The translations under genes were made by a program, and so were the position numbers. The notes under the pieces were generated by a model, which saw nothing but the letters and a program-made list of their open reading frames with translations, made no database searches and had not been told where the DNA came from. A stretch of DNA of 64,000 nucleotides, taken from Candidatus Saccharimonadota bacterium. Its GTDB lineage: Bacteria > Patescibacteriota > Saccharimonadia > Saccharimonadales > UBA10212. The stretch is taken from NCBI GenBank assembly GCA_016187125.1, contig JACPKF010000001.1, positions 38,931-102,930 of the forward strand, written 5' to 3'. Positions 1,845-52,342 of this stretch are shown in pieces; within the stretch, counting starts at the first letter, position 1, and the number at the start of each line of letters is the position of its first letter.

Positions 1845-1883
1845 GGCGCTATAGTTGAATTATGATAATTCAACTATAGCGCC
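1845..1883 (-). terminator. 39-nt perfect palindrome (19-nt arms) overlapping the rplL stop codon; putative operon-end hairpin without a U-tract
   Basis: GGCGCTATAGTTGAATTAT-G-ATAATTCAACTATAGCGCC. The left arm in mRNA sense is the last 7 codons plus the TAA of rplL. Confidence 0.4.
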
Positions 1884-2438
1884 AGCGGCTTCTAAAGTTT
1901 TTTTAGCTTCTTCGGCTTCGTCTTTGGATACTTTTTCTTTGACGAGCTTGGGCGCACTGTCAACGATTGCCTTGGCCTCGCCCAAACCTAAACCGGTAAT
2001 TTCCTTGACAGCCTTAATAATGGCTACTTTCTGAGCGCCAGGGTCCTTAAGAAGTACATCGTATTCGCTCTTTTGCTCGGCTGCCGGGGCAGCTTCGCTA
2101 TCTCCACTTGGTACAGCCGCCGCCGCGACTGCCGGCACAGCTGCGCTAACTCCCCAGTGGTCTTGAAGAAACTGAACGAATTTACTAATTTCTAGGGCCG
2201 TAAGCTTATCTAATTTATCTGCTAGATCCTTAAATTCTTTAGGAACTTTTAAGTCCTTTTTTTTCTCAAGTTTTGCCTCAGCCTGAGGCTTTACTTTTTC
2301 TTCTTTATTTTCATCTTTGGACTCGGGCTTAGGTACTGCCTCAACTTTGGTTTCAGCCTCTGATTGTTTTTGTTCCTCCTGTGTTTCCAAAGGCTGCTCT
2401 TCGGTCTTTTTTTCTACTGTTTGATCGTTATCTGCCAT
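1860..2438 (-). CDS. rplL: 50S ribosomal protein L7/L12 with about 70-aa Lys/Glu-rich N-terminal extension
   Basis: C-terminal [68 protein letters not shown] is the canonical L12 C-terminal domain. AAGGAG lies 7 nt before the ATG at 2438. Confidence 0.9.
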
Positions 2439-2553
2439 AATATTCTCCTTACTTGCCCGCCGAAGTTTCTTCCGAAAGCTTAGCTGGGTAAAATTATTTT
2501 AATTACTCACTAACTGTTTCAGCTCGAGATCTAAGTACACTAAGTACTCCTCG

Positions 2554-2647
2554 TACCCACGCACCAAAATCTTGAAGCTTCGTAATCTGCATGCCATGGC
2601 GACATGCCGTGGATTACAGACTACTTTGCTCAGGATTTGGTGCGGGG
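2554..2647 (+). repeat. partial, diverged copy of the 130-nt structured repeat (see 9477 and 48552)
   Basis: Shares TACCCACGCACCAAAA at the 5' end and TTTGGTGCGGGG at the 3' end. CGCACCAAAT pairs with ATTTGGTGCG, and an internal CATGGC/GCCGTG hairpin is present. Confidence 0.4.
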
Positions 2648-2658
2648 CAAGCATTACC

Positions 2659-8915: not shown

Positions 8916-9293
8916 CTACTTGAGGATTACCTTTTTAAATACCTCGTCCAGGATTTTATCAACTCCGGCTACTAAAGAACCAAATACTATTGCAAAAATC
9001 AAAACTGCTAGAGTCAGACGCCTCGTTTCTATACGAGTCGGCCAAGTAACTTGTCTAACCTCACGCCAGGAATTAATAAAATATCGGGGTACAAGCCAGC
9101 TTAAAATCTTTTTAAGTGGCCAAAAAATAAAAACCAGGATTCTAATTACTCGAGACAAAAAACCTGCTTTGAGCAATCTTGATCCAAACTTGCTAAGCTT
9201 TGAGGATTTTTTGCGAACCTCGATCTTAGTTCTGGCAGTCTCTGCTTTCTCCCCAACGCTCAATGCCTTCCGGATTCTAGGCTTATTGGCCAT
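8916..9293 (-). CDS. secE: preprotein translocase subunit SecE (extended N-terminus)
   Basis: C-terminal REVRQVTWPTRIETRRLTLAVLIFAIVFGSLVAGVDKILD is the SecE transmembrane signature. Sits in the canonical position upstream of nusG. Confidence 0.75.
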   Translation of the reverse strand: MANKPRIRKALSVGEKAETARTKIEVRKKSSKLSKFGSRLLKAGFLSRVIRILVFIFWPLKKILSWLVPRYFINSWREVRQVTWPTRIETRRLTLAVLIFAIVFGSLVAGVDKILDEVFKKVILK

Positions 9294-9476
9294 CTTACTC
9301 CCTTTGCCCGCCTAAACTTCTCCTTTTCCGGATGAAGTTTGTGCGACCAAGCCCGCAATCCGCCTCAGGCGGACAGCAGGTAATTAAAATAGCCTACTGT
9401 TTATAGTAGGCCTTCACCTGTCAATAGTAGCAAATGGCATGAGGTTTATCAAGGCCCCCAACTAAGCCATGCTAAA

Positions 9477-9606
9477 TTACCCACGCACCGAAAAAGCCTC
9501 GAACTTTAATTCGGGGATGAAGGTCAGTCTGGCTTTTTAGTGCGGGGTTCCGCGCTCCAAAAGCCGAAGGGTTGAAGCCTCGGACTTTAGTTCGTGGAGC
9601 GCTTCA
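9477..9606 (+). repeat. 130-nt structured repeat, copy 1 (element sense is the plus strand, antisense to flanking genes)
   Basis: About 85% identical to the reverse complement of 48552-48680. Contains CTCGAA-CTTTAA-TTCGGG and CCTCGGAC-TTTA-GTTCGTGG hairpins plus a GCGCTCCA...TGGAGCGC closing helix. Confidence 0.75.
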
Positions 9607-10341
9607 CCAAGAAGGTTCTAAACGGGGCTTGTGTTCACGGAGTTGACGACGTTTTAATTTTGCACTAGGGACTAGTTCTTCCAACCGAGCCCAATAATCA
9701 GGGCTATGGTTAAGGAATTTAGTATGAACAAGCTCGTGCAGCATGACATATTTGATAAATTCGTCTGGCAATTGCACCAAGAAATAGCTCAAAGTGATGA
9801 TTTGATTACTAGAACAACTACCCCAACGTGAAGTTAGTTTACGTATGCGTAGCTCTTTATAGTTAAAGCCATTTTTTTCAGCCAGAGCCAGCAGCTGTGG
9901 TGGAAGACTAACTTTAGCTTCCTTTAGAAGAGCCCGTTCACAGGCATGGATGGCCCGACGTTGTACAAGCTCATTCTGAATTGGGTAAGAAGTGCTAATA
10001 ATAATTCTTTGACCAGCGATTCTTGTTGCTAGAACTATTGGCTCCAGCGCCTTGATTATCTGGAGATTATAGGTCTTACCGATTCTTGCGCCGTCTCTCA
10101 GTAGGATTTTTTGATTCTTCTGTTTGTGAGCAATGATCCAATCTTTACGTTTTTTGGCGAACGCCAGCGCCGAGCGATAAGGGACCCAACGGGGCATACT
10201 AATGCGGACTTGGCCATTAATATTGACACTTAATCTTAGACCTTTGGCACTTCTACGTTTTGCCAGAGTTATTTCGCCGATTTCATCCACCCAAGCCTTT
10301 TTGGACATTCGACTGGCCTGAGCTCGCTGGTGGTAAACCAT
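9604..10341 (-). CDS. YgjP/DUF45-like zinc metallohydrolase (HExxH)
   Basis: C-terminal region reads FIKYVMLHELVHTKFLNHSPDYWARLEELVP, an HELVH motif in the DUF45 context. Confidence 0.7.
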   Translation of the reverse strand: MVYHQRAQASRMSKKAWVDEIGEITLAKRRSAKGLRLSVNINGQVRISMPRWVPYRSALAFAKKRKDWIIAHKQKNQKILLRDGARIGKTYNLQIIKALEPIVLATRIAGQRIIISTSYPIQNELVQRRAIHACERALLKEAKVSLPPQLLALAEKNGFNYKELRIRKLTSRWGSCSSNQIITLSYFLVQLPDEFIKYVMLHELVHTKFLNHSPDYWARLEELVPSAKLKRRQLREHKPRLEPSW

Positions 10342-23985: not shown

Positions 23986-24102
23986 TCAGCCTTGCCTCTG
24001 TTTATGCTTAGGTTTTTTCTTATTAATAATATATACTCGTCCCTTACGGCGGACGACTTTGTCATCCGGACTAATTTTTTTGACGCTAGCACGCACTTTC
24101 AT
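23986..24102 (-). CDS. rpmJ: 50S ribosomal protein L36 (Cys-less, zinc-independent type)
   Basis: Below the ORF-track size cut-off. My translation is [43 protein letters not shown] lies upstream. Confidence 0.85.
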
Positions 24103-24227
24103 CCCGTTAGACCTCCGCTCCGCGGCATCCCGTTAGAGGCAAGAATTGGGAAAATTCTGCCGGTTCGCTAATGCGAACCGGGCCTCTAACGGGATTAGGT
24201 CTAACGGGATGAACCCCGTTAGAAGCC
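24101..24227 (-). promoter_or_regulatory. nested inverted-repeat RNA structure overlapping the rpmJ SD/AUG (five copies of CCCGTTAGA/TCTAACGGG)
   Basis: Perfect pairings are 24101-24113 with 24198-24210, 24127-24140 with 24182-24195, and an alternative TCTAACGGG at 24200-24208 with CCCGTTAGA at 24215-24223. Inner hairpins span 24142-24158 and 24160-24181. Confidence 0.6.
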
Positions 24228-44665: not shown

Positions 44666-47600
44666 TCACTGTTTTACCTCTGTTGCAAGATCCGCTGCTG
44701 CAGTTTCTTTGTCGTCATCTTTTTGAGCACCGGTACCTACAGGGATGAGCCGGCCGAGGATTACATTTTCTTTAAGACCGTAAAGCCGGTCGACTTTACC
44801 ACTAGTAGCCGCCGCAATCAAAACTCTAGTGGTATCCTGGAATGAGGCAGCAGAAAGGAAGGAGTCCGTACTGAGTGAGGCTTTAGTTATTCCCAAAAGC
44901 AGTTGATTATATTTTACAACGCGTTTCTTAGCTTTTACGAGCTTTTCATTAGCTTCTACGACTGCTAACTTACTGACGATATCGCCAGTGATAAATTGAC
45001 TGTCGCCGGAGTCTTCTATCTGCACGCGGCTAAACATCTGACGGATGATAACCTCCAGGTGTTTGTCGGCAATTGTTTGACCTTGGCTAGCAAAAATGTA
45101 TAGAATTTCATTCATTATGTAGCACTGAGTCGCTTCGATGCCCTGCAGCCGCATTAACTCATGCAAATTGATTGAACCATTTGTTAAGCGTTGGCCAGCC
45201 ACAACCGAGTCGCCATCGGCTACCAGCAATTGTTTAAAGCCAGGGATTTCATAATTGATAGTACTTTTAGCGGTAGGGGTAATGGTTACTCCGTTCTTAT
45301 CCACACTAACCTTCCCGACCATGGTGGCATGAATGGGTTCGCTACCGTCCTCGTTGGCGGCTATAACATCACCAAGATTAACTTCGTCGCCGGTTTTGAT
45401 ACTGGGATGACGATCGCCAATCGAAATCTCCACTGGTTTTTGCTTTTTGGCCGTCACTTGTACTATGTAGTGGTCGCCTTCCTCCCAGGTGTTAACAACA
45501 CCCGTGATATCTGTCAAAAAAGCTTGACCCTTAGGCGTGCGGACTTCTAAAAGTTCTTCCACTCGGGTTAGACCTTGGGTGACGTCATCGCGGGCAGTAA
45601 CTGCGCCGGCTCGGTGTTTGGAATCAAGTGAAAGCTGAGTGCCAGGTTCACCGATTGACTGAGCAGCAATGACACCAATCGGGTAATCATTGGCAACCAG
45701 TCGTCCGGTAGCAAGGTCAAGACCATATGATTCCTGGCTAACACCACGGACACTAGCACAAGATAAAACACTCATAATGCGGACTGTCTTAACCGTCTCA
45801 TCTTCCTCAATAGCCTTAGCAATCTCCGGAGTAATCATAGCGCCAGCTTTGACATATCTTTTAACATTTTCGGCCGCAAAACGGCCAATCAGCCTGCCGC
45901 CAAAAGCAATATTGATGGCTTCCGATTCAGATCTGTGAACCGGGAAACCGGGGTCTTCACAATCTTGCTTGACCGTAAAGACGTCTTGGGCAACATCTAC
46001 CAGCCGCCGAGTTAAGTAACCAGAGTCGGCTGTACGAAGAGCAATATCGATTAGTGACTTTCGAGTGCCTCGGGTAGCTGTAAAATATTCAAGCGGCGAC
46101 AGCCCGTATTTGTAGTTGCTTCTTACGGGTAGCTCGATGGCCCGACCAGTAGCATCGGCAAACATACCAAGCATACCGACACTCTTTTTCATCTGACTGA
46201 TGTTGCCACGGGCGCCGGAGGCTATGGCAATCGACATGGTATTGTCCTCAGTGGCAAACTGTTCGGCCAAGGCTTGTTCCACTTTAGTGTCGACATCAGT
46301 CCAGGTCTCAACAGTCAGACGATAACGTTCATCGTCAGTAATAAAACCAGCACCGTATTGTTTGGATATTTCAGTCGCTCTGGCTTCGCCTTCTTCAACG
46401 ATTTTGGGAAGCTCCGTAAGATCCGAAAAATCGTTCATACTAATAGATAAGCCCGAGTAAGTGGCGTAGCTAAAGCCCAGATCTTTAAGATCATCAGCAA
46501 TTAAAGCTGTTGCGTCTTGGCCATATTTTTGGTATGTCATTGTCATAACCAAGTCCAGCTTTTTATTAGTCATGGCCACGTTTTGGAAAGGAAAATCCTC
46601 GGGAAATATTTCGTTGAACAAAAGTCTGCCAACTGTAGTATCCCGGACTTCACCGCGAAACGGAATATTGACTCGATTCTGTAAATTAATTAAACCATCA
46701 TCTAGGGCCAGTAGTGCTTCTTCCAAACTAGCGAAGTCGACTGGCTTTTCATTTTCGGTGCCTGGGCGTTGATATGTTAGATAGTAGCAACCTAGCACAA
46801 TATCTTGTTCGACATGCAAAATAGGTGAACCGTCGGCCGGCTTTAGCAAGTTTTTATTGGAAGCCATGATGTTGCTGGCTTCGGCCTGGGCTTTTTCACC
46901 AAGTGGTAAGTGGACAGCCATCTGGTCACCGTCGAAGTCAGCGTTAAAACCTTTACAAACCAGCGGGTGAAGCTGGATAGCTTTACCTTCGATCAGCACT
47001 GGCTGAAAAGCCTGAATACTCAGACGATGTAGGCTAGGCGCACGGTTAAGCAGCACATATTTGTTTTTAATAACCTCATCAAGGGCGTCCCAGACAACAC
47101 TGTCACCGGTTTCCAACATCCGCGTAGCGCTGCGGATATTATGTGCCAGCTCTTGGTCAATTAAACGACCGATAACAAAGGGCTTAAAGAGCTCCAGAGC
47201 CATTGTCTTTGGCAAACCACACTGATACATTTTCAGCTCTGGTCCAGCAACAATTACACTGCGACCTGAGTAATCTACGCGCTTACCAAGAAGGTTCTGG
47301 CGAAAGCGGCCTTGTTTGCCTTTGAGCATGTCTGACAAGCTCTTGAGACGGCGACGCTGGCCGGTAGCAGCTACAGCCCGACCAGACCGGGCATTGTTGT
47401 TATCAATCAGAGCATCCACAGCTTCCTGTAACATTCGTTGCTCATTACGACGAATAACTTCCGGAGCATTAAGTTCCATTAATTTTTTAAGCCGGTTATT
47501 ACGATTAATCACCCGACGGTATAAATCATTTAAGTCGCTGGTTGCAAAACGCCCACCGGTTAATTGCACCATTGGGCGAAGATCCGGTGGGATTACCGGC

Positions 47601-48505
47601 AGTACCGTTACGCACATGCTTGACGGTTTAATGCCAGCACGCTCCATACTCTCGAGCAGGCGCAGTCGCTTCATAATTTTCTTCTTGCGCTGGCCTTTGG
47701 CTTCATCAGCTTCTTTATTTAAATCTTTAATTAGCTTACTAAGGTCAACTTCATCCAACAGCTCTTTAATGGCTGCGCCGCCCATACCGACCTTAATCAA
47801 TGATTGTAGATTATCTGGCAAGCTTCGGTAGTCTGTCTCACTCAGCAGATTAAACTTGGCAAGCACCGAAATCACATTTTTAAATTGCTCTGCTTTAGCC
47901 GCCAGCTCTTCAAGTTCACGAGCTTGGGTTTGAGCTAACTCCTTAACATTCGCTCCACCGGTTGGTAGCTTCTTTTCGGCCTCGGCTTTATACTTGGCTT
48001 TAATAGCAGACTCGGTGGCAGTGAAGCTGGCTTGCTTATCGGCTATGATTTTATCTAGGGCAGCGGTGTTAACATTTTTAATAATGTAACTAGCAAAGTA
48101 AGCAATACGTTCTAGATTTTTGACAGTCATGCCCAGAAGCAAGCCAATCGCACTGGGTGTGCCACGCAAAAACCAAATATGTGCTGCAGGACAAGCCAGA
48201 GTGACGTGACCCATTCGTTCGCGCCGGACAATACTGCGAGTAACCAATTCACCGTTTTTATCAACCGCTGCTTCACGGCTGCGAACCCCTTTGTATTTAG
48301 CATCGTGTGGGTTGATATCCTTAACAGGGCCAAAAATACGTTCACAGAACAAACCATCACGTTCCGGTTTCTGGGTTCGATAATTTATAGTTTCAGGTTT
48401 GGTGACTTCCCCATAACTCCAATCCAATATGTCGTCTGGGCTGGCGATGGCTAGTCGAACAGCGTCAAAATCGGCAATATTGGTTCCAGGGTTATAATTT
48501 CTCAC
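44666..48505 (-). CDS. rpoC: DNA-directed RNA polymerase subunit beta-prime
   Basis: 1279 aa containing NADFDGDQMAVH (catalytic Mg site). Preceded by CGACTGAAAGGAG. Confidence 0.96.
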   Translation of the reverse strand: MRNYNPGTNIADFDAVRLAIASPDDILDWSYGEVTKPETINYRTQKPERDGLFCERIFGPVKDINPHDAKYKGVRSREAAVDKNGELVTRSIVRRERMGHVTLACPAAHIWFLRGTPSAIGLLLGMTVKNLERIAYFASYIIKNVNTAALDKIIADKQASFTATESAIKAKYKAEAEKKLPTGGANVKELAQTQARELEELAAKAEQFKNVISVLAKFNLLSETDYRSLPDNLQSLIKVGMGGAAIKELLDEVDLSKLIKDLNKEADEAKGQRKKKIMKRLRLLESMERAGIKPSSMCVTVLPVIPPDLRPMVQLTGGRFATSDLNDLYRRVINRNNRLKKLMELNAPEVIRRNEQRMLQEAVDALIDNNNARSGRAVAATGQRRRLKSLSDMLKGKQGRFRQNLLGKRVDYSGRSVIVAGPELKMYQCGLPKTMALELFKPFVIGRLIDQELAHNIRSATRMLETGDSVVWDALDEVIKNKYVLLNRAPSLHRLSIQAFQPVLIEGKAIQLHPLVCKGFNADFDGDQMAVHLPLGEKAQAEASNIMASNKNLLKPADGSPILHVEQDIVLGCYYLTYQRPGTENEKPVDFASLEEALLALDDGLINLQNRVNIPFRGEVRDTTVGRLLFNEIFPEDFPFQNVAMTNKKLDLVMTMTYQKYGQDATALIADDLKDLGFSYATYSGLSISMNDFSDLTELPKIVEEGEARATEISKQYGAGFITDDERYRLTVETWTDVDTKVEQALAEQFATEDNTMSIAIASGARGNISQMKKSVGMLGMFADATGRAIELPVRSNYKYGLSPLEYFTATRGTRKSLIDIALRTADSGYLTRRLVDVAQDVFTVKQDCEDPGFPVHRSESEAINIAFGGRLIGRFAAENVKRYVKAGAMITPEIAKAIEEDETVKTVRIMSVLSCASVRGVSQESYGLDLATGRLVANDYPIGVIAAQSIGEPGTQLSLDSKHRAGAVTARDDVTQGLTRVEELLEVRTPKGQAFLTDITGVVNTWEEGDHYIVQVTAKKQKPVEISIGDRHPSIKTGDEVNLGDVIAANEDGSEPIHATMVGKVSVDKNGVTITPTAKSTINYEIPGFKQLLVADGDSVVAGQRLTNGSINLHELMRLQGIEATQCYIMNEILYIFASQGQTIADKHLEVIIRQMFSRVQIEDSGDSQFITGDIVSKLAVVEANEKLVKAKKRVVKYNQLLLGITKASLSTDSFLSAASFQDTTRVLIAAATSGKVDRLYGLKENVILGRLIPVGTGAQKDDDKETAAADLATEVKQ

Positions 48506-48551
48506 ATGCAGCTCCTTTCAGTCGCTTAGGTAAAATATGAAATGCTAGATG

Positions 48552-48680
48552 TGAAGCGCTCCACGGACTAAAGTCCATGGCTTCAGGCTTGCGGCTTTCG
48601 GAGCGTGGAACCCCGCACCGAAAGCCAGAACTGGCATTCAGCCCCGAACTAAAGTTCGAGGCTTTCTGGTGCGTGGGTAA
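48552..48680 (-). repeat. 130-nt structured repeat, copy 2 (element sense is the minus strand, i.e. mRNA sense, in the rpoB-rpoC spacer)
   Basis: Its reverse complement aligns with 9477-9606 at about 85% identity, with indels. Hairpins are CCTCGAAC-TTTA-GTTCGGGG and CCATGGAC-TTTA-GTCCGTGG. Confidence 0.75.
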
Positions 48681-48769: not shown

Positions 48770-51700
48770 TCATGAGGCGGCCTCTTCGCTAGTTTCATCG
48801 TCACTACTACCATTGACCGTTATGCCAGCAGCTAGACCATTATCGTCGATATCAACAGTTGTGGTGTCGTCAAGATGCGCGCTGCTAAATTGATCTGCCA
48901 CGTTGTTATCGGTTACACCGACGTCACCGATTATGCCTACAGGAGGGGTAATCTTAGGCGCATGAGCGGCTTCGTCTTTAATATTGCGGGCCAGAACTTC
49001 TTCGGCGTCAATAATCTTATTGTCACTGGTAAGCAAATCAACTTTAAGCCCAAGGCCCTGAAGTTCTTTGACAAGTACATTGAAGCTTTCCGGTACTTTC
49101 GGTCCTTGGATCGGTGTACTTTTAATAATGCTTTCATAAGCTTTAGCCCGACCATAAACGTCATCAGATTTAATGGTTAGCATTTCCTGAAGGGTATGAG
49201 CCGCCCCATAAGCTTCCAAGGCCCAGACTTCCATTTCGCCAAAGCGTTGGCCGCCGTTTTGGGCTTTACCGCCAAGAGGCTGCTGGGTGACCATAGTATA
49301 TGGTCCCGTAGAGCGAGCATGAATTTTGTCGCTAACCATATGATTAAGTTTAATAATGTACATACTGCCGACTGTTGTACGTTCGGAGAATGCCTGACCA
49401 GTGCGTCCATCATAAAGTTGCTGCTTACCATCGGTAGGCAGTCCTGCCTCCTTTAAGAGGCTTTGGATCTTATCATTTGGTACGCCGTTAAAGGACGGGC
49501 TGGCTACTTTTATGCCGAGTGCTTGGGCGGCCATCCCTAGATGAGTTTCAAATAATTGGCCAATATTCATGCGTGATGGGACACCCAGTGGGTTAAGAAT
49601 GATATCAATCGGCGTGCCACCTTCGTTAAATGGCATATCTTCTATAGGTAGGATTCTAGCAATAACACCTTTGTTACCGTGCCGTCCGCCGAGTTTATCG
49701 CCAACGCTGATTTTGCGCATTTGGGCTACAAAAACCTGAATCTGCATGATAACGCCGGCTTTCAGCTCATGCCCGGAAGCCCGTGAGAAAACTTTAACGC
49801 CAACGACTTTGCCATGCCGGCCGGTGCTCATGCGCTGAGAAGTATCACGAACTTCTTTGGCTTTTTCGCCAAAAATTGCTCGCAGCAAGCGTTCTTCACT
49901 GGAAAGTTCTTGCTCGCCTTTTGGCGTAATTTTGCCCACCAAAATGTCGCTGGGATGAACTTCGGCGCCGATGCGCACAATGCCATCTTCGTCAAGGTGT
50001 CTGAGTGACTCTTCGGAGACGTTAGGAATATCGCGGGTAACAATTTCTGGACCTAACTTGGTTTCGCGAACTTCGGTCATGTAGTCCACGATATGGATCG
50101 AGGTTAGAGTGTCATCTTCAACTAGTCGCCGCGAAATAATAATTGCATCTTCGAAGTTATAACCGGACCAGGGCATAAAAGCTACTAGCAGATCTTTACC
50201 TAGAGCTAGTTCACCATTTTGGGTACTCATACCTTCAATTATCGGCTGCCCGGCTTTGACTCTGTCGCCACTATCTACAACTACGATTTGATTAATGCAA
50301 CTGCCTTCGTTACTGCGCATAAAGTGCACGGGATTGTAGGTAACTTTTTTGCCGGTTTTGTATTTGACGACTACTTCATCAGCCGTAGCTTTTAAGACTT
50401 CACCATCAGCCTCAGCGGTAATTAATTGGCCAGTATTGGCAGCTACTACTTCCTCAAAGCCAGTGCCTACAACCGGACTCTTCGGCTGAATGAGCGGTAC
50501 AGCTTGTCGCTGCTGGTTAGAGCCCATTAAGGACCGAAGCACGTAGTTTTTTTCTATGAATGGCACTAACCCAGCACTACTACCAATGGTTTGGGCGCGG
50601 CTGGCGTCCATATGAGTAATTTCATTAGCGTCAACCTCACCTGGCTCCAAACGATTGCGGACACTTATGCGAGCATCAATAAAGTAGCCGTCTTTGTCGA
50701 TTTCGTTACCGGCGCCGGCAATTACAGCTTGCAATTCCTCCGACGCATCTAGATAAATTATTTGATTGGTAACCTTGGCTTTAACAGGCCAAGTCTTTCT
50801 AGATTTAACCGCTGCTAGCCTCTTGGCAGCAGCGACTGTTATGAGCGCGCCGGCTTTAACAATAGTGGTACCTTTTTCGTTTTCAAGATTAACCGCCGCA
50901 ATATGACCAGGAGCTTCTTTAGGCGTAACAGAATTAATAACTTTTCTATAAGGGGTTTCGATAAAGCCATATTCATTAATACGAGCATAGCTGGCCAAGT
51001 TGAGTACCAGACCGATATTAGCCCCTTCCGGAGTTTCCACCGGACAGATGCGGCCATAATGGGTGGCATGGGCGTCGCGAACTTCAAAGCCGGCCCGTTC
51101 ACGTGATAAGCCGCCTGGCCCCATAGACGAAAGACGGCGTTTGTGTGCTAGTTCGGATAGCGGATTAATCTGGTCCATAAACTGTGACAGCTGAGAACTG
51201 GCAAAGAATTCGCGAACGGCGGCCACAACCGGACGGGCATTTATAAGCTGCGCCGGCGTGACTGTTTCTATATCGGACATCGACATGCGATCTTTAGCGT
51301 TACGCTCCATTCTAAGCAGGCCGATTCGGAACTGACGCTGAACCAGCTCGCCAACTAGTTTGACTCGGCGGTTGGCTAAGCTGTCAATTTCATCACCCGG
51401 TTCCTGAGTGTTATTGAGGCGAATAATTTCGGCAATGATAGCGACGAGATCTTCGATCCGCATTACTCGGTTTGCGGAATTATTAGGCACCTCCAAGTTC
51501 AAGCGTTTATTGAGTTTGTAACGACCGACTTTACCAAAATCGAAGCGCTTAAAGTTGTAAAGCATGTTTTCTATGAGACTCCGGGCATTTTCAACAGTCG
51601 CCAAATCGCCCGGCCGCAGCCGTCTATAGACTTCAATCAAAGCTTCGTTAGTACTGTGCGCCGGGTCCTTTTCTAGCGTTGCATCTACATAACTGTGCTC

Positions 51701-52342
51701 TCCGCCCTCGACGTGTTGAAAAGCGTTTTTGATTTGCTGCTCGCTTAGCCCGAGCGCCTTTAGCAGGGTGGTAACTGGAATTTTACGCTTGCGATCAATT
51801 TTAACGTGCAAGGAACCATTGGCAGCGGTTTCGAATTCCAGCCAGGCACCGCGAACTGGTATAACTTTAGCTCCGTAAAGATTCGTGGTGCCGTGCGGAT
51901 CAGCCGTAAAGAAAACACCGCTACTGCGGATGAGTTGGCTGACAACCACCCTCTCTGCCCCATTAATAACAAAAGTACCCCTGGTGGTCATCCAGGGGTA
52001 ATCGCCTAAGTATATTTCTTGATCTTTGATCTCACCGGTTACCTTGTTGGTAAGCTCAATAACGGCCTTGAGAGGCGCCTCGTAACTGACATTGTTTTCC
52101 CGGGCTTCGGCTTCAGTTAGTTTTGGTACCTCAAAGTGGTATTTTTTAAAACGGACACTCAGTTTAGTGCCGGTATAATCATCAATCGGGCTGACTTCCT
52201 CAAGTAACTCACCAAGGCCTTCTTTGACAAACCAATCAAAGGAGGTATTCTGGTGATCTACCAGATTTGGTGGACTCAAAATGTCGTCAGATTTTGTAAA
52301 GTACTGGCGAGTCAATGTCGCCTGAGATTTTTTGGCCGTCAA
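48770..52342 (-). CDS. rpoB: DNA-directed RNA polymerase subunit beta
   Basis: 1190 aa containing [24 protein letters not shown]. TTG start as called by the track. Confidence 0.96.
   Translation of the reverse strand: [1190 protein letters not shown]

Follow-up and report, generated by a model that had tools for sequence, protein, structure and literature searches.

A previously undescribed family of small, gene-less, hairpin-rich mobile repeats in intergenic spacers of Saccharibacteria and other bacteria

A stretch of 64,000 nucleotides from a Candidatus Saccharimonadota bacterium, referred to here as the window, carries a repeat of about 130 nucleotides in the spacers of two sets of housekeeping genes. 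The question raised by this locus is what kind of element it is and how it came to lie there. A sequence-only reading of the window had proposed a small mobile or structured RNA element, either MITE-like or a small-RNA gene, or else a DNA-level element, and had assigned it to no known family. When 9477-9606 (+) was aligned globally with 48552-48680 in reverse complement, 112 of 131 columns were identical (85.5%) with three 1-base indels, and a blastn search of the whole window with copy 1 as query recovered copy 2 at E 1.4e-36; the identity of about 85% and the single-base indels described earlier are thus confirmed. A scan of the window with three core patterns of 24-27 nt matched copies 1 and 2 only, where shuffles expect 0. 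The ends of both copies lie slightly beyond those first proposed, at ACCC and TTCAC, with TT before each. A third, degenerate copy, absent from the earlier reading, was also detected. The copies are listed below.

Copy 1, 9479..9607, + strand: full element ACCC...TTCAC, with TT at 9477-9478; P1 domain 9479-9548, linker TCC 9549-9551, P2 domain 9552-9602, tail TTCAC 9603-9607; antisense to its neighbours
Copy 2, 48551..48678, - strand: full element, reading 48678-48551, with TT at 48680-48679; P1 domain 48678-48610, linker 48609-48607, P2 domain 48606-48556, tail 48555-48551; sense, in the rpoB-rpoC spacer
Copy 3, 2553..2650, + strand: degenerate, P1 only; antisense, in the rplJ-rplL spacer, with the rplJ stop codon 11 nt off

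With the R1 covariance model, copy 1 scored 120.2 bits (E 1.9e-27) and copy 2 137.1 bits (E 1.4e-31). Copy 3 (ACCCACGCACC ... GGTGCGGGG) scored 20.1 bits; its E value was 0.002 for the window as a whole, filters being off, and 1.6e-5 in a local search; its inner helix AAATC/GATTT is compensated and its P2 is not recognisable. Just past it, GCCTTCGCAC at 2672-2681 bears a faint likeness to the element end and lies within the C-terminal codons of rplJ.

The genes next to copies 1 and 2 are as follows; those next to copy 3 are L10 and L7/L12 by Pfam.

secE, 8916..9293, - strand: Pfam SecE; downstream neighbour of copy 1 on the - strand
DUF45/YgjP-like (M48/SprT-type) gene, 9604..10341, - strand: from the open reading frame list, the Pfam family and a C-terminal alignment with relatives
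rpoC, 44666..48505, - strand: from the open reading frame list, named as in the earlier reading; start 45 nt downstream of copy 2, with AAAGGAG before the start
rpoB, 48770..52342, - strand: from the open reading frame list, named as in the earlier reading; its stop precedes copy 2 by 88 nt in the sense direction

Copy 1 is therefore antisense to the DUF45 gene and secE and copy 2 is sense between rpoB and rpoC, as had been described. Just past the 5' end of copy 1 lie a promoter-like site of secE (9452-9424, -) and a leader hairpin with a T-run (9412-9391). The site reads TTGATA-17-TACTAT with an upstream TG, followed by the hairpin GGCCTACTATAAACAGTAGGCT and ATTTT (window 9391-9452, -). Both the promoter-like site and the hairpin with T-run are kept in two relatives (L043/L044), the neighbouring proteins of which are only 58-59% identical, and the stretch may thus act as leader or attenuator for the secE-nusG operon. 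The L7/L12 open reading frame at 1860-2438 (-) encodes 192 aa, and its Pfam domains start at residue 71; it has either an unusual N-terminal extension or a later true start, which would make the rplJ-rplL spacer at copy 3 longer. Another structured element, at 24095-24225 (-) in the infA-rpmJ spacer, consists of very stable nested hairpins with five copies of TCTAACGGGAT in alternating orientation (MFE -83.6 kcal/mol, z -8.2), and its outer helix spans the Shine-Dalgarno sequence and start codon of rpmJ. A weak model match at 24080-24199 (15.8 bits) falls on this element, which is distinct and was rejected as a family member.

Folding of the repeat is better than that of shuffles on both strands (z -3.4 to -4.7). 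The two 8-bp hairpins with TTTA loops quoted in the earlier reading occur as such in copy 2, CCTCGAAC-TTTA-GTTCGGGG and CCATGGAC-TTTA-GTCCGTGG; copy 1 has mismatches in both, a C.A mismatch in ATTCGGGG and a U.U mismatch plus a G.U pair in CCTCGGAC...GTTCGTGG. A change between the copies that preserves pairing was found at columns 18/130 of alignment A3, where A-U in copy 1 is replaced by G-C in copy 2, in agreement with the earlier description. The occurrence of U.G pairs only on the element-sense strand was not upheld. By the consensus structure, copy 2 contains a single U.G together with a single A.C, and copy 1 contains a single G.U, two C.A and a U.U; A.C and C.A read as G.U on the other strand. 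The strand argument built on these pairs fails for the two window copies, and the family as a whole leans only mildly to the annotated strand (27 G.U against 14 A.C cells). Coding potential was considered and rejected: a 93-aa open reading frame across copy 2 has no Pfam match, and the length differences between inserts are not multiples of three.

Analysis of genome and metagenome collections revealed that the repeat belongs to a real and hitherto undescribed family of mobile repeats, small and structured, devoid of genes and rich in hairpins, with about 23 copies in several phyla. The further copies that the earlier reading had suggested looking for thus exist, in addition to the degenerate copy 3 in the window. 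A scan of 185,579 species genomes with an exact pattern, in which 18 bases were specified at the junction of the two halves, returned 25 loci; 12 have the whole layout and the remainder are chance matches in high-GC genomes. A metagenome scan with the first half left free added 12 loci, three of these being duplicates. A covariance model built on 11 copies gave the 23 full members 64-140 bits and also detected copy 3. The common plan is T-N-ACCC-N-CGCACC [variable insert] GGTGCGGGGTTCCGCGCTCC [variable insert] GGAGCGCTTCAC, that is, ACCC-N-CGCACC, insert 1, GGTGCG-GGGT-TCC-GCGCTCC, insert 2 and GGAGCGC-TTCAC. The elements are 70-165 nt in size and contain no open reading frame. The 43-nt core is nearly invariant, a statement that is circular for the bases forced by the exact core patterns with which members were gathered; the parts of the core left unforced in each scan are still unchanged in most copies. 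Insert length varies from 3 to about 100 nt, and base changes within the inserts are compensatory. Insert 1 is a plain hairpin or a branched domain of 18-88 nt, and insert 2 ranges from GGT (L024, element of 69 nt) up to about 80 nt (L014).

The host labels of the members are Saccharibacteria, Kerfeldbacteria, Liptonbacteria, an unclassified Patescibacteria MAG, an Elusimicrobiota MAG (two copies on one contig), two contigs of 'Gammaproteobacteria' MAGs and, through an L16 protein, Sungbacteria. The last concerns the MAG of copy L013 (CAYIBD010000008.1), which is labelled Saccharibacteria and has an L16 protein nearest (87%) to Candidatus Sungbacteria proteins; its label or binning may be wrong. 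Similarly, one of the 'Gammaproteobacteria' copies (L020) has CPR-like neighbours, a sigma-r4 plus HARE-HTH protein. Subfamilies track host lineage and the loci are non-orthologous; copies from other loci in other Saccharibacteria resemble copy 2 more (87% and 86%) than copy 1 does (84%). Through this long divergence the core has therefore stayed constant. Within a single MAG, copies L013 and L023 lie on separate contigs and agree at 99% identity; the identity of either to L001 is 93%. Two copies from one metagenome (L034 2105-2230 and L040 2134-2259) share the same 126 nt of element and differ only past the 3' end; both contigs terminate inside the element, within P1, which is consistent with assembly breaks at a multi-copy repeat.

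Searches outside cellular genomes and in known families were negative. Distant blastn found no match in plasmid and phage collections. The joined core had 0 matches in viral contigs, and patterns for isolated P1 or P2 gave 35 loci there, none with the family layout; all are chance matches in phage contigs of high GC, either to GC-rich hairpins or to coding sequence. Rfam 15 at the gathering threshold found only five tRNAs in the whole window. With copy 1, L031 and L011 as queries and E up to 10, it gave sub-threshold noise only, the models covered including IS605-orfB, HEARO and omega-RNAs as well as the hammerhead, twister, pistol, hatchet and HDV-like ribozymes. The earlier failure to assign the repeat to a known family therefore stands. 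The element is not mentioned in any paper found, and keyword searches on CPR repeats gave nothing relevant; the lone match of a literature sequence search was a chance 12-mer in the R2Bm 5' RNA.

The fold is conserved across the family. In the 22-member alignment 92.9% of the cells pair; sliding the 3' partners by 1-3 columns lowers this to 31-48%. Changes on both sides occur at 14 of 37 pairs (67 cells) in the P1 extension, P1b and P2b, all these counts being tilted towards the model because the alignment was fitted to it. None of 500 shuffles reached the covariation score or the paired fraction. RNAalifold on an independent MAFFT alignment gave the same helices with eight covarying pairs. 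The basal feet (10 and 7 bp) show no covariation. They are alike, CGCACC/GGTGCG in P1 and GCGCTCC/GGAGCGC in P2 (CGC-A/T-CC), and the P1 foot has one bulged base. P2 is a three-way junction whose joiners, RAAW and YUGA, are purine-rich and conserved. Most terminal loops are of the type C-NUNA-G (UUUA, GUAA, GUCA), and GAAA or GCAA often closes the small hairpin; such GNRA-type and C-NUNA-G loops are found on the sense strand only.

Alignment of the flanks of 20 copies at both junctions revealed that conservation stops sharply at ACCC and TTCAC. Upstream, T occurs at -2 in all 20 copies and at -1 in 16; T is also enriched past the other end, at +1, +2 and +4. At the left the junction is thus T-N-A-C|CC (TTAC in 16/20), and all copies listed have T-C-A-C| as right end. 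Apart from their T-richness the upstream flanks are unrelated. Neither terminal inverted repeats nor a target-site duplication was found in the 20 copies, and the check for duplications proposed in the earlier reading thus came out negative. A comparison of TTACCCACGCACC with the reverse complement of GGAGCGCTTCAC found only the subterminal CGCWCC in common. CTAGC or CTAAA near both window copies was considered as a target-site duplication and rejected, its offsets being mismatched and the motifs missing in the other copies. A consensus scan of the two window sites found one promoter-like site, at 48739-48711 (-), about 30 nt ahead of copy 2; ahead of copy 1 it found no sigma-70-like site on the + strand. 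No intrinsic terminator was found inside or after copy 1 or copy 2, where P2 is followed by TTCAC with no T-run.

All copies are strictly intergenic and occur in both orientations, and their neighbours are housekeeping genes with no recurrent partner. To the window sites rpoB/rpoC, rplJ/rplL and DUF45/secE are added, outside the window, rpsC/rplP, T2SS-E/F, ptsI/lepA, ftsH/rpsA, a sigma-like gene/secF and, twice, hpf. Two sites could be compared with relatives, and at both the relatives have no insert, which constitutes an insertion polymorphism. The rpsC-rplP spacer measures 216 nt with the element and 15 and 8 nt in relatives. Between DUF45 and secE the window has 310 bp, two other Saccharibacteria have 130 and 100 bp, and the alignment with these picks up again at the conserved secE promoter and leader; in the collections searched, the nearest DUF45 homologue with secE as neighbour is 58-59% identical, too distant for an exact empty site. 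At this locus the insertion reaches into the gene. Relatives of the DUF45 protein terminate in RLEPS/R/L-stop and the window protein, one residue longer, in RLEPSW-stop; its TGG TGA (window 9604-9609, -) spans the junction at the element 3' end (TG|GTGAAGCGC). Deletion of ACCC...TTCAC gives back a normal DUF45 end, EPS-TGA; deletion of CC...TTCAC, with TTAC kept, gives back EPSW-TAA. The proposal of a small mobile or structured element is thus supported by the roughly 23 copies, by covariation in the peripheral helices and by the insert-free relatives.

Two observations concern what lies around single copies. On one Saccharibacteria-type contig (L037, 5162-5364 and 3368-3480) a 13-nt motif forms two inverted-repeat pairs, ATCCCGTTAGAA-S / S-TTCTAACGGGAT; one pair encloses a family copy, with TTCAC abutting the right arm, and the other encloses unrelated sequence. 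Either a second repeat family or the use of a hairpin loop as insertion site may account for these inverted repeats. In a single case (L032, 1530-1910, -) a gene for a '23S rRNA-intervening sequence protein' (PF05635) ends about 10 nt before the family copy.

Comparison with known systems narrows the range of explanations. With classical MITEs such as Correia/NEMIS and RUP the family has in common that it is gene-less, about 100-150 bp long, placed between genes and possibly co-transcribed; it differs from them in having neither terminal inverted repeats nor a target-site duplication, by which MITEs are defined, in the 20 copies, and MITE-like in the classical sense is therefore not an apt description. 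Like integron attC sites it has a conserved stem foot with an extrahelical base and a variable terminal structure (3 to >100 nt), and like them it would be read as a folded single strand. Unlike them it lacks the RYYYAAC/GTTRRRY core, the sole GTT of its core preceding CCG (GTTCCGC) and not RRR; it has two hairpins instead of one, forms no cassette arrays and has no integrase nearby. The IS110 bridge RNA is a two-loop RNA in the non-coding end of the IS110 recombinase gene. TIGR arrays consist of tandem 36-nt dual-spacer units next to a Tas gene (PMC12045711). The family resembles bridge RNA and tigRNA in its two-domain RNA-like fold, its variable internal parts and some occurrence in CPR, and differs from both in that copies are single, without 36-nt arrays, and have no recombinase or Tas gene among the annotated neighbours. 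Copies L001, L013 and L023 share an identical P1 interior at unrelated flanks, and the interior therefore does not encode the target.

Several RNA folds were also considered and rejected. For a hammerhead at the P2 junction GAAA ... CUGA is present, but the joiners are in the wrong order and Rfam is negative. The minimal copy L024 is too small for the P2/P1.1 pseudoknot of an HDV-like fold. P1 followed by U-CC is suggestive of a tRNA-like minihelix, but there is no T-loop and ARAGORN and Rfam are negative. A pseudoknot between the UUCAC tail and UGAA is contradicted by the simple-type copies, in which UGAA is not kept.

The reading that we prefer, with a probability of about 0.35, is a non-autonomous element mobilised in trans and read as a folded single strand, closest to the PATEs derived from IS200/IS605. 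PATEs, or palindrome-associated transposable elements, are moved in trans by a Y1 HUH transposase. They are protein-less derivatives of IS200/IS605 elements; the concept, with its transposon-adjacent and transposon-encoded motifs (TAM/TEM), and the omega-RNA that some PATEs bear are described in PMC10055086. A PATE-like model is the best available because the family has no terminal inverted repeats, no target-site duplication and no open reading frame, because its ends are asymmetric with similar feet and because the left motif is echoed at the right end. According to this model an enzyme encoded elsewhere, possibly of the HUH type, would recognise the element as a folded single strand. The working part would be the core, comprising the foot ACCC-N-CGCACC/GGTGCG-GGGT with its one bulge, the TCC linker, the foot GCGCTCC/GGAGCGC, the TTCAC tail and the T at -2. 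Insertion would take place into T-rich intergenic DNA with no target duplication, and T-N-A-C|CC on the left and T-C-A-C| on the right would correspond to the layout of a transposon-adjacent and a transposon-encoded motif in HUH/Y1 'peel-and-paste' transposition. The variable inserts within the feet would keep their own helices and could have an RNA role once transcribed, as omega-RNA parts do in PATEs.

The likeness to PATEs extends to several features. The elements are small, intergenic and multi-copy, with no open reading frame, terminal inverted repeat or target duplication; their ends are strand-asymmetric and carry GC-rich, imperfect hairpin feet that resemble each other, although the loops between them are filled by inserts; the left end is flanked by the 4-nt motif T-N-A-C (usually TTAC, the IS608 motif), and a similar motif, TCAC, closes the element; and the interior is structured, as in omega-RNA-bearing PATEs. 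There are also differences. No cognate TnpA/TnpB was found: Pfam analysis of the neighbours revealed no transposase (Y1, TnpB or any other) beside any copy, and a tblastn search with an IS608 TnpA query, a weak test, found no Y1 transposase in the 356 kb examined. In IS608 the cleavage motifs lie 19 nt (left) and 10 nt (right) from the hairpins and 4-nt guides pair with the motifs (PMC3201880). In the present family the left motif abuts or overlaps the P1 foot (0-3 nt) and the right motif lies 5 nt from the P2 foot, and the candidate 4-nt guides, TTCC 5' of P2 and CCC-N 5' of P1, are complementary to neither TCAC nor TNAC; position 2 of the adjacent motif and the bulged N showed no covariation. 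The hairpin loops carry large structured inserts (3-100 nt), the Rfam IS605-orfB and HEARO models are unmatched and the replication orientation in the window is mixed: the window resembles a single replichore, and one of its three copies (copy 2) is in the lagging-strand orientation. Against the PATE-like model it must also be said that a DNA transposon would not need a conserved three-way junction and GNRA-type loops, and that the likeness of TCAC to TNAC would arise by chance at about 1/64. Judged from sequence, the family appears most like a PATE in its working, though not demonstrably one.

The features that a DNA transposon would not need are those that favour a structured RNA module acting in the sense transcript and spreading by an RNA-linked or another route, the main rival of the PATE-like model and a somewhat unlikely reading in our estimation. 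Variants of it are a protein-binding or a processing/stability element in operon mRNAs, a guide-RNA-like scaffold and a small self-processing RNA, the invariant core being a protein or tertiary-contact site and the variable arms structural decoration. The extent of pairing (92.9% of cells) and of double changes (14 pairs, 67 cells) speaks for it, together with the P2 three-way junction and its joiners RAAW and YUGA, the GAAA, GCAA, GUAA and more broadly C-NUNA-G loops confined to the sense strand, and the excess of G.U over A.C cells (27 to 14); the same covariation is, however, expected from single-stranded DNA hairpins, and the pair counts come from the model-fitted alignment. Many copies lie in translation or transcription operons (rpoBC, rplJL, secE-nusG, rpsC-rplP, rpsA, lepA and hpf twice). 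Of 22 copies, about 16 run in the same sense as their neighbours and about six are antisense, open reading frame calls being rough in high-GC contigs; as a proxy only, sense is also the lagging-strand-template orientation in these co-oriented genomes. At least two core mismatches were found in three of six antisense copies (copy 3, L008 and L020) and in none of 15 sense copies, which points to faster decay of antisense copies. Sense bias and antisense decay are also expected from strand-biased DNA insertion where genes are co-oriented with replication, and they therefore do not separate the two models. Six copies are antisense nevertheless, some of them structurally sound (L011, L014 and copy 1); the minimal 69-nt copy L024 is without any peripheral RNA-like feature; the flanks are unrelated, with no sigma-70-like site ahead of copy 1 and a promoter-like site ahead of copy 2 at the two sites scanned; and Rfam is negative at E up to 10, ribozymes and omega-RNAs included. 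That the invariant two-hairpin core with its covarying arms constitutes, in CPR and Elusimicrobiota bacteria, a new class of functional small RNAs is a more doubtful proposition still; such a class could be a guide-RNA-like or self-processing module, gene-less and mobile, that acts in the transcripts of housekeeping operons and is more than a transposon relic.

A domesticated repeat of the REP/BIME type and a free-standing small RNA both fit less well than the PATE-like or the RNA-centred reading. The former, which we consider quite improbable, would be an intergenic hairpin maintained by the host for a role on DNA or mRNA, such as mRNA 3'-end protection, transcription pausing or nucleoid-protein binding, and would change slowly in copy number through a housekeeping enzyme or recombination and not by active transposition. 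REP/REPIN units have a GTAG-type 5' motif, often form inverted doublets and occur in genomes with a RAYT gene. The family is like REP/BIME/REPIN and ERIC/IRU in being short, structured, intergenic and multi-copy, in lying in transcribed spacers in and between housekeeping operons in either orientation and, as with REP and ERIC, in depending on a trans factor if it is mobile at all. The subfamilies track host lineage with no identity across phyla, the window copies are old (84-85% identical, one decayed) and no transposase was seen, all of which agrees with domestication. Unlike REP/REPIN, it lacks the GTAG-plus-hairpin unit and has two different hairpin domains in a fixed direct order in place of the inverted doublet. 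One invariant 43-nt core across phyla is hard to square with host-specific domestication, REP families being species-specific; P2 has no T-run and neither window copy contains a terminator; and the identical and 99% identical copies in one MAG and the L034/L040 pair indicate recent spread. A family of independent small-RNA genes, each with a promoter and a terminator of its own, is very unlikely; a small-RNA gene was the other possibility raised by the sequence-only reading. The fold is stable, the core is conserved and a promoter-like site precedes copy 2 by about 30 nt on the same strand; against this, copy 1 has no such site upstream on the + strand, no terminator follows either copy, the upstream flanks have only T-richness in common, conservation stops exactly at ACCC and TTCAC, and copies in either orientation are wedged into operon spacers that measure 8-15 nt in relatives.

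CPR/Patescibacteria are ultrasmall bacteria whose genomes are tiny and streamlined, and repeats in them have hardly been described. The present family is a gene-less element with a 43-nt core unchanged across phyla and arms that change by compensation, and it lies inside the most conserved operons, among them rpoBC, rplJL and S10. If, as in the PATE-like model, it is moved by an enzyme acting on single-strand DNA, these organisms would possess an unrecognised transposition system, and the element would also be a useful marker for assembly breaks and strain variation. Should function reside in the RNA, the family would be a candidate for a new RNA class with an alignment ready for experiments.
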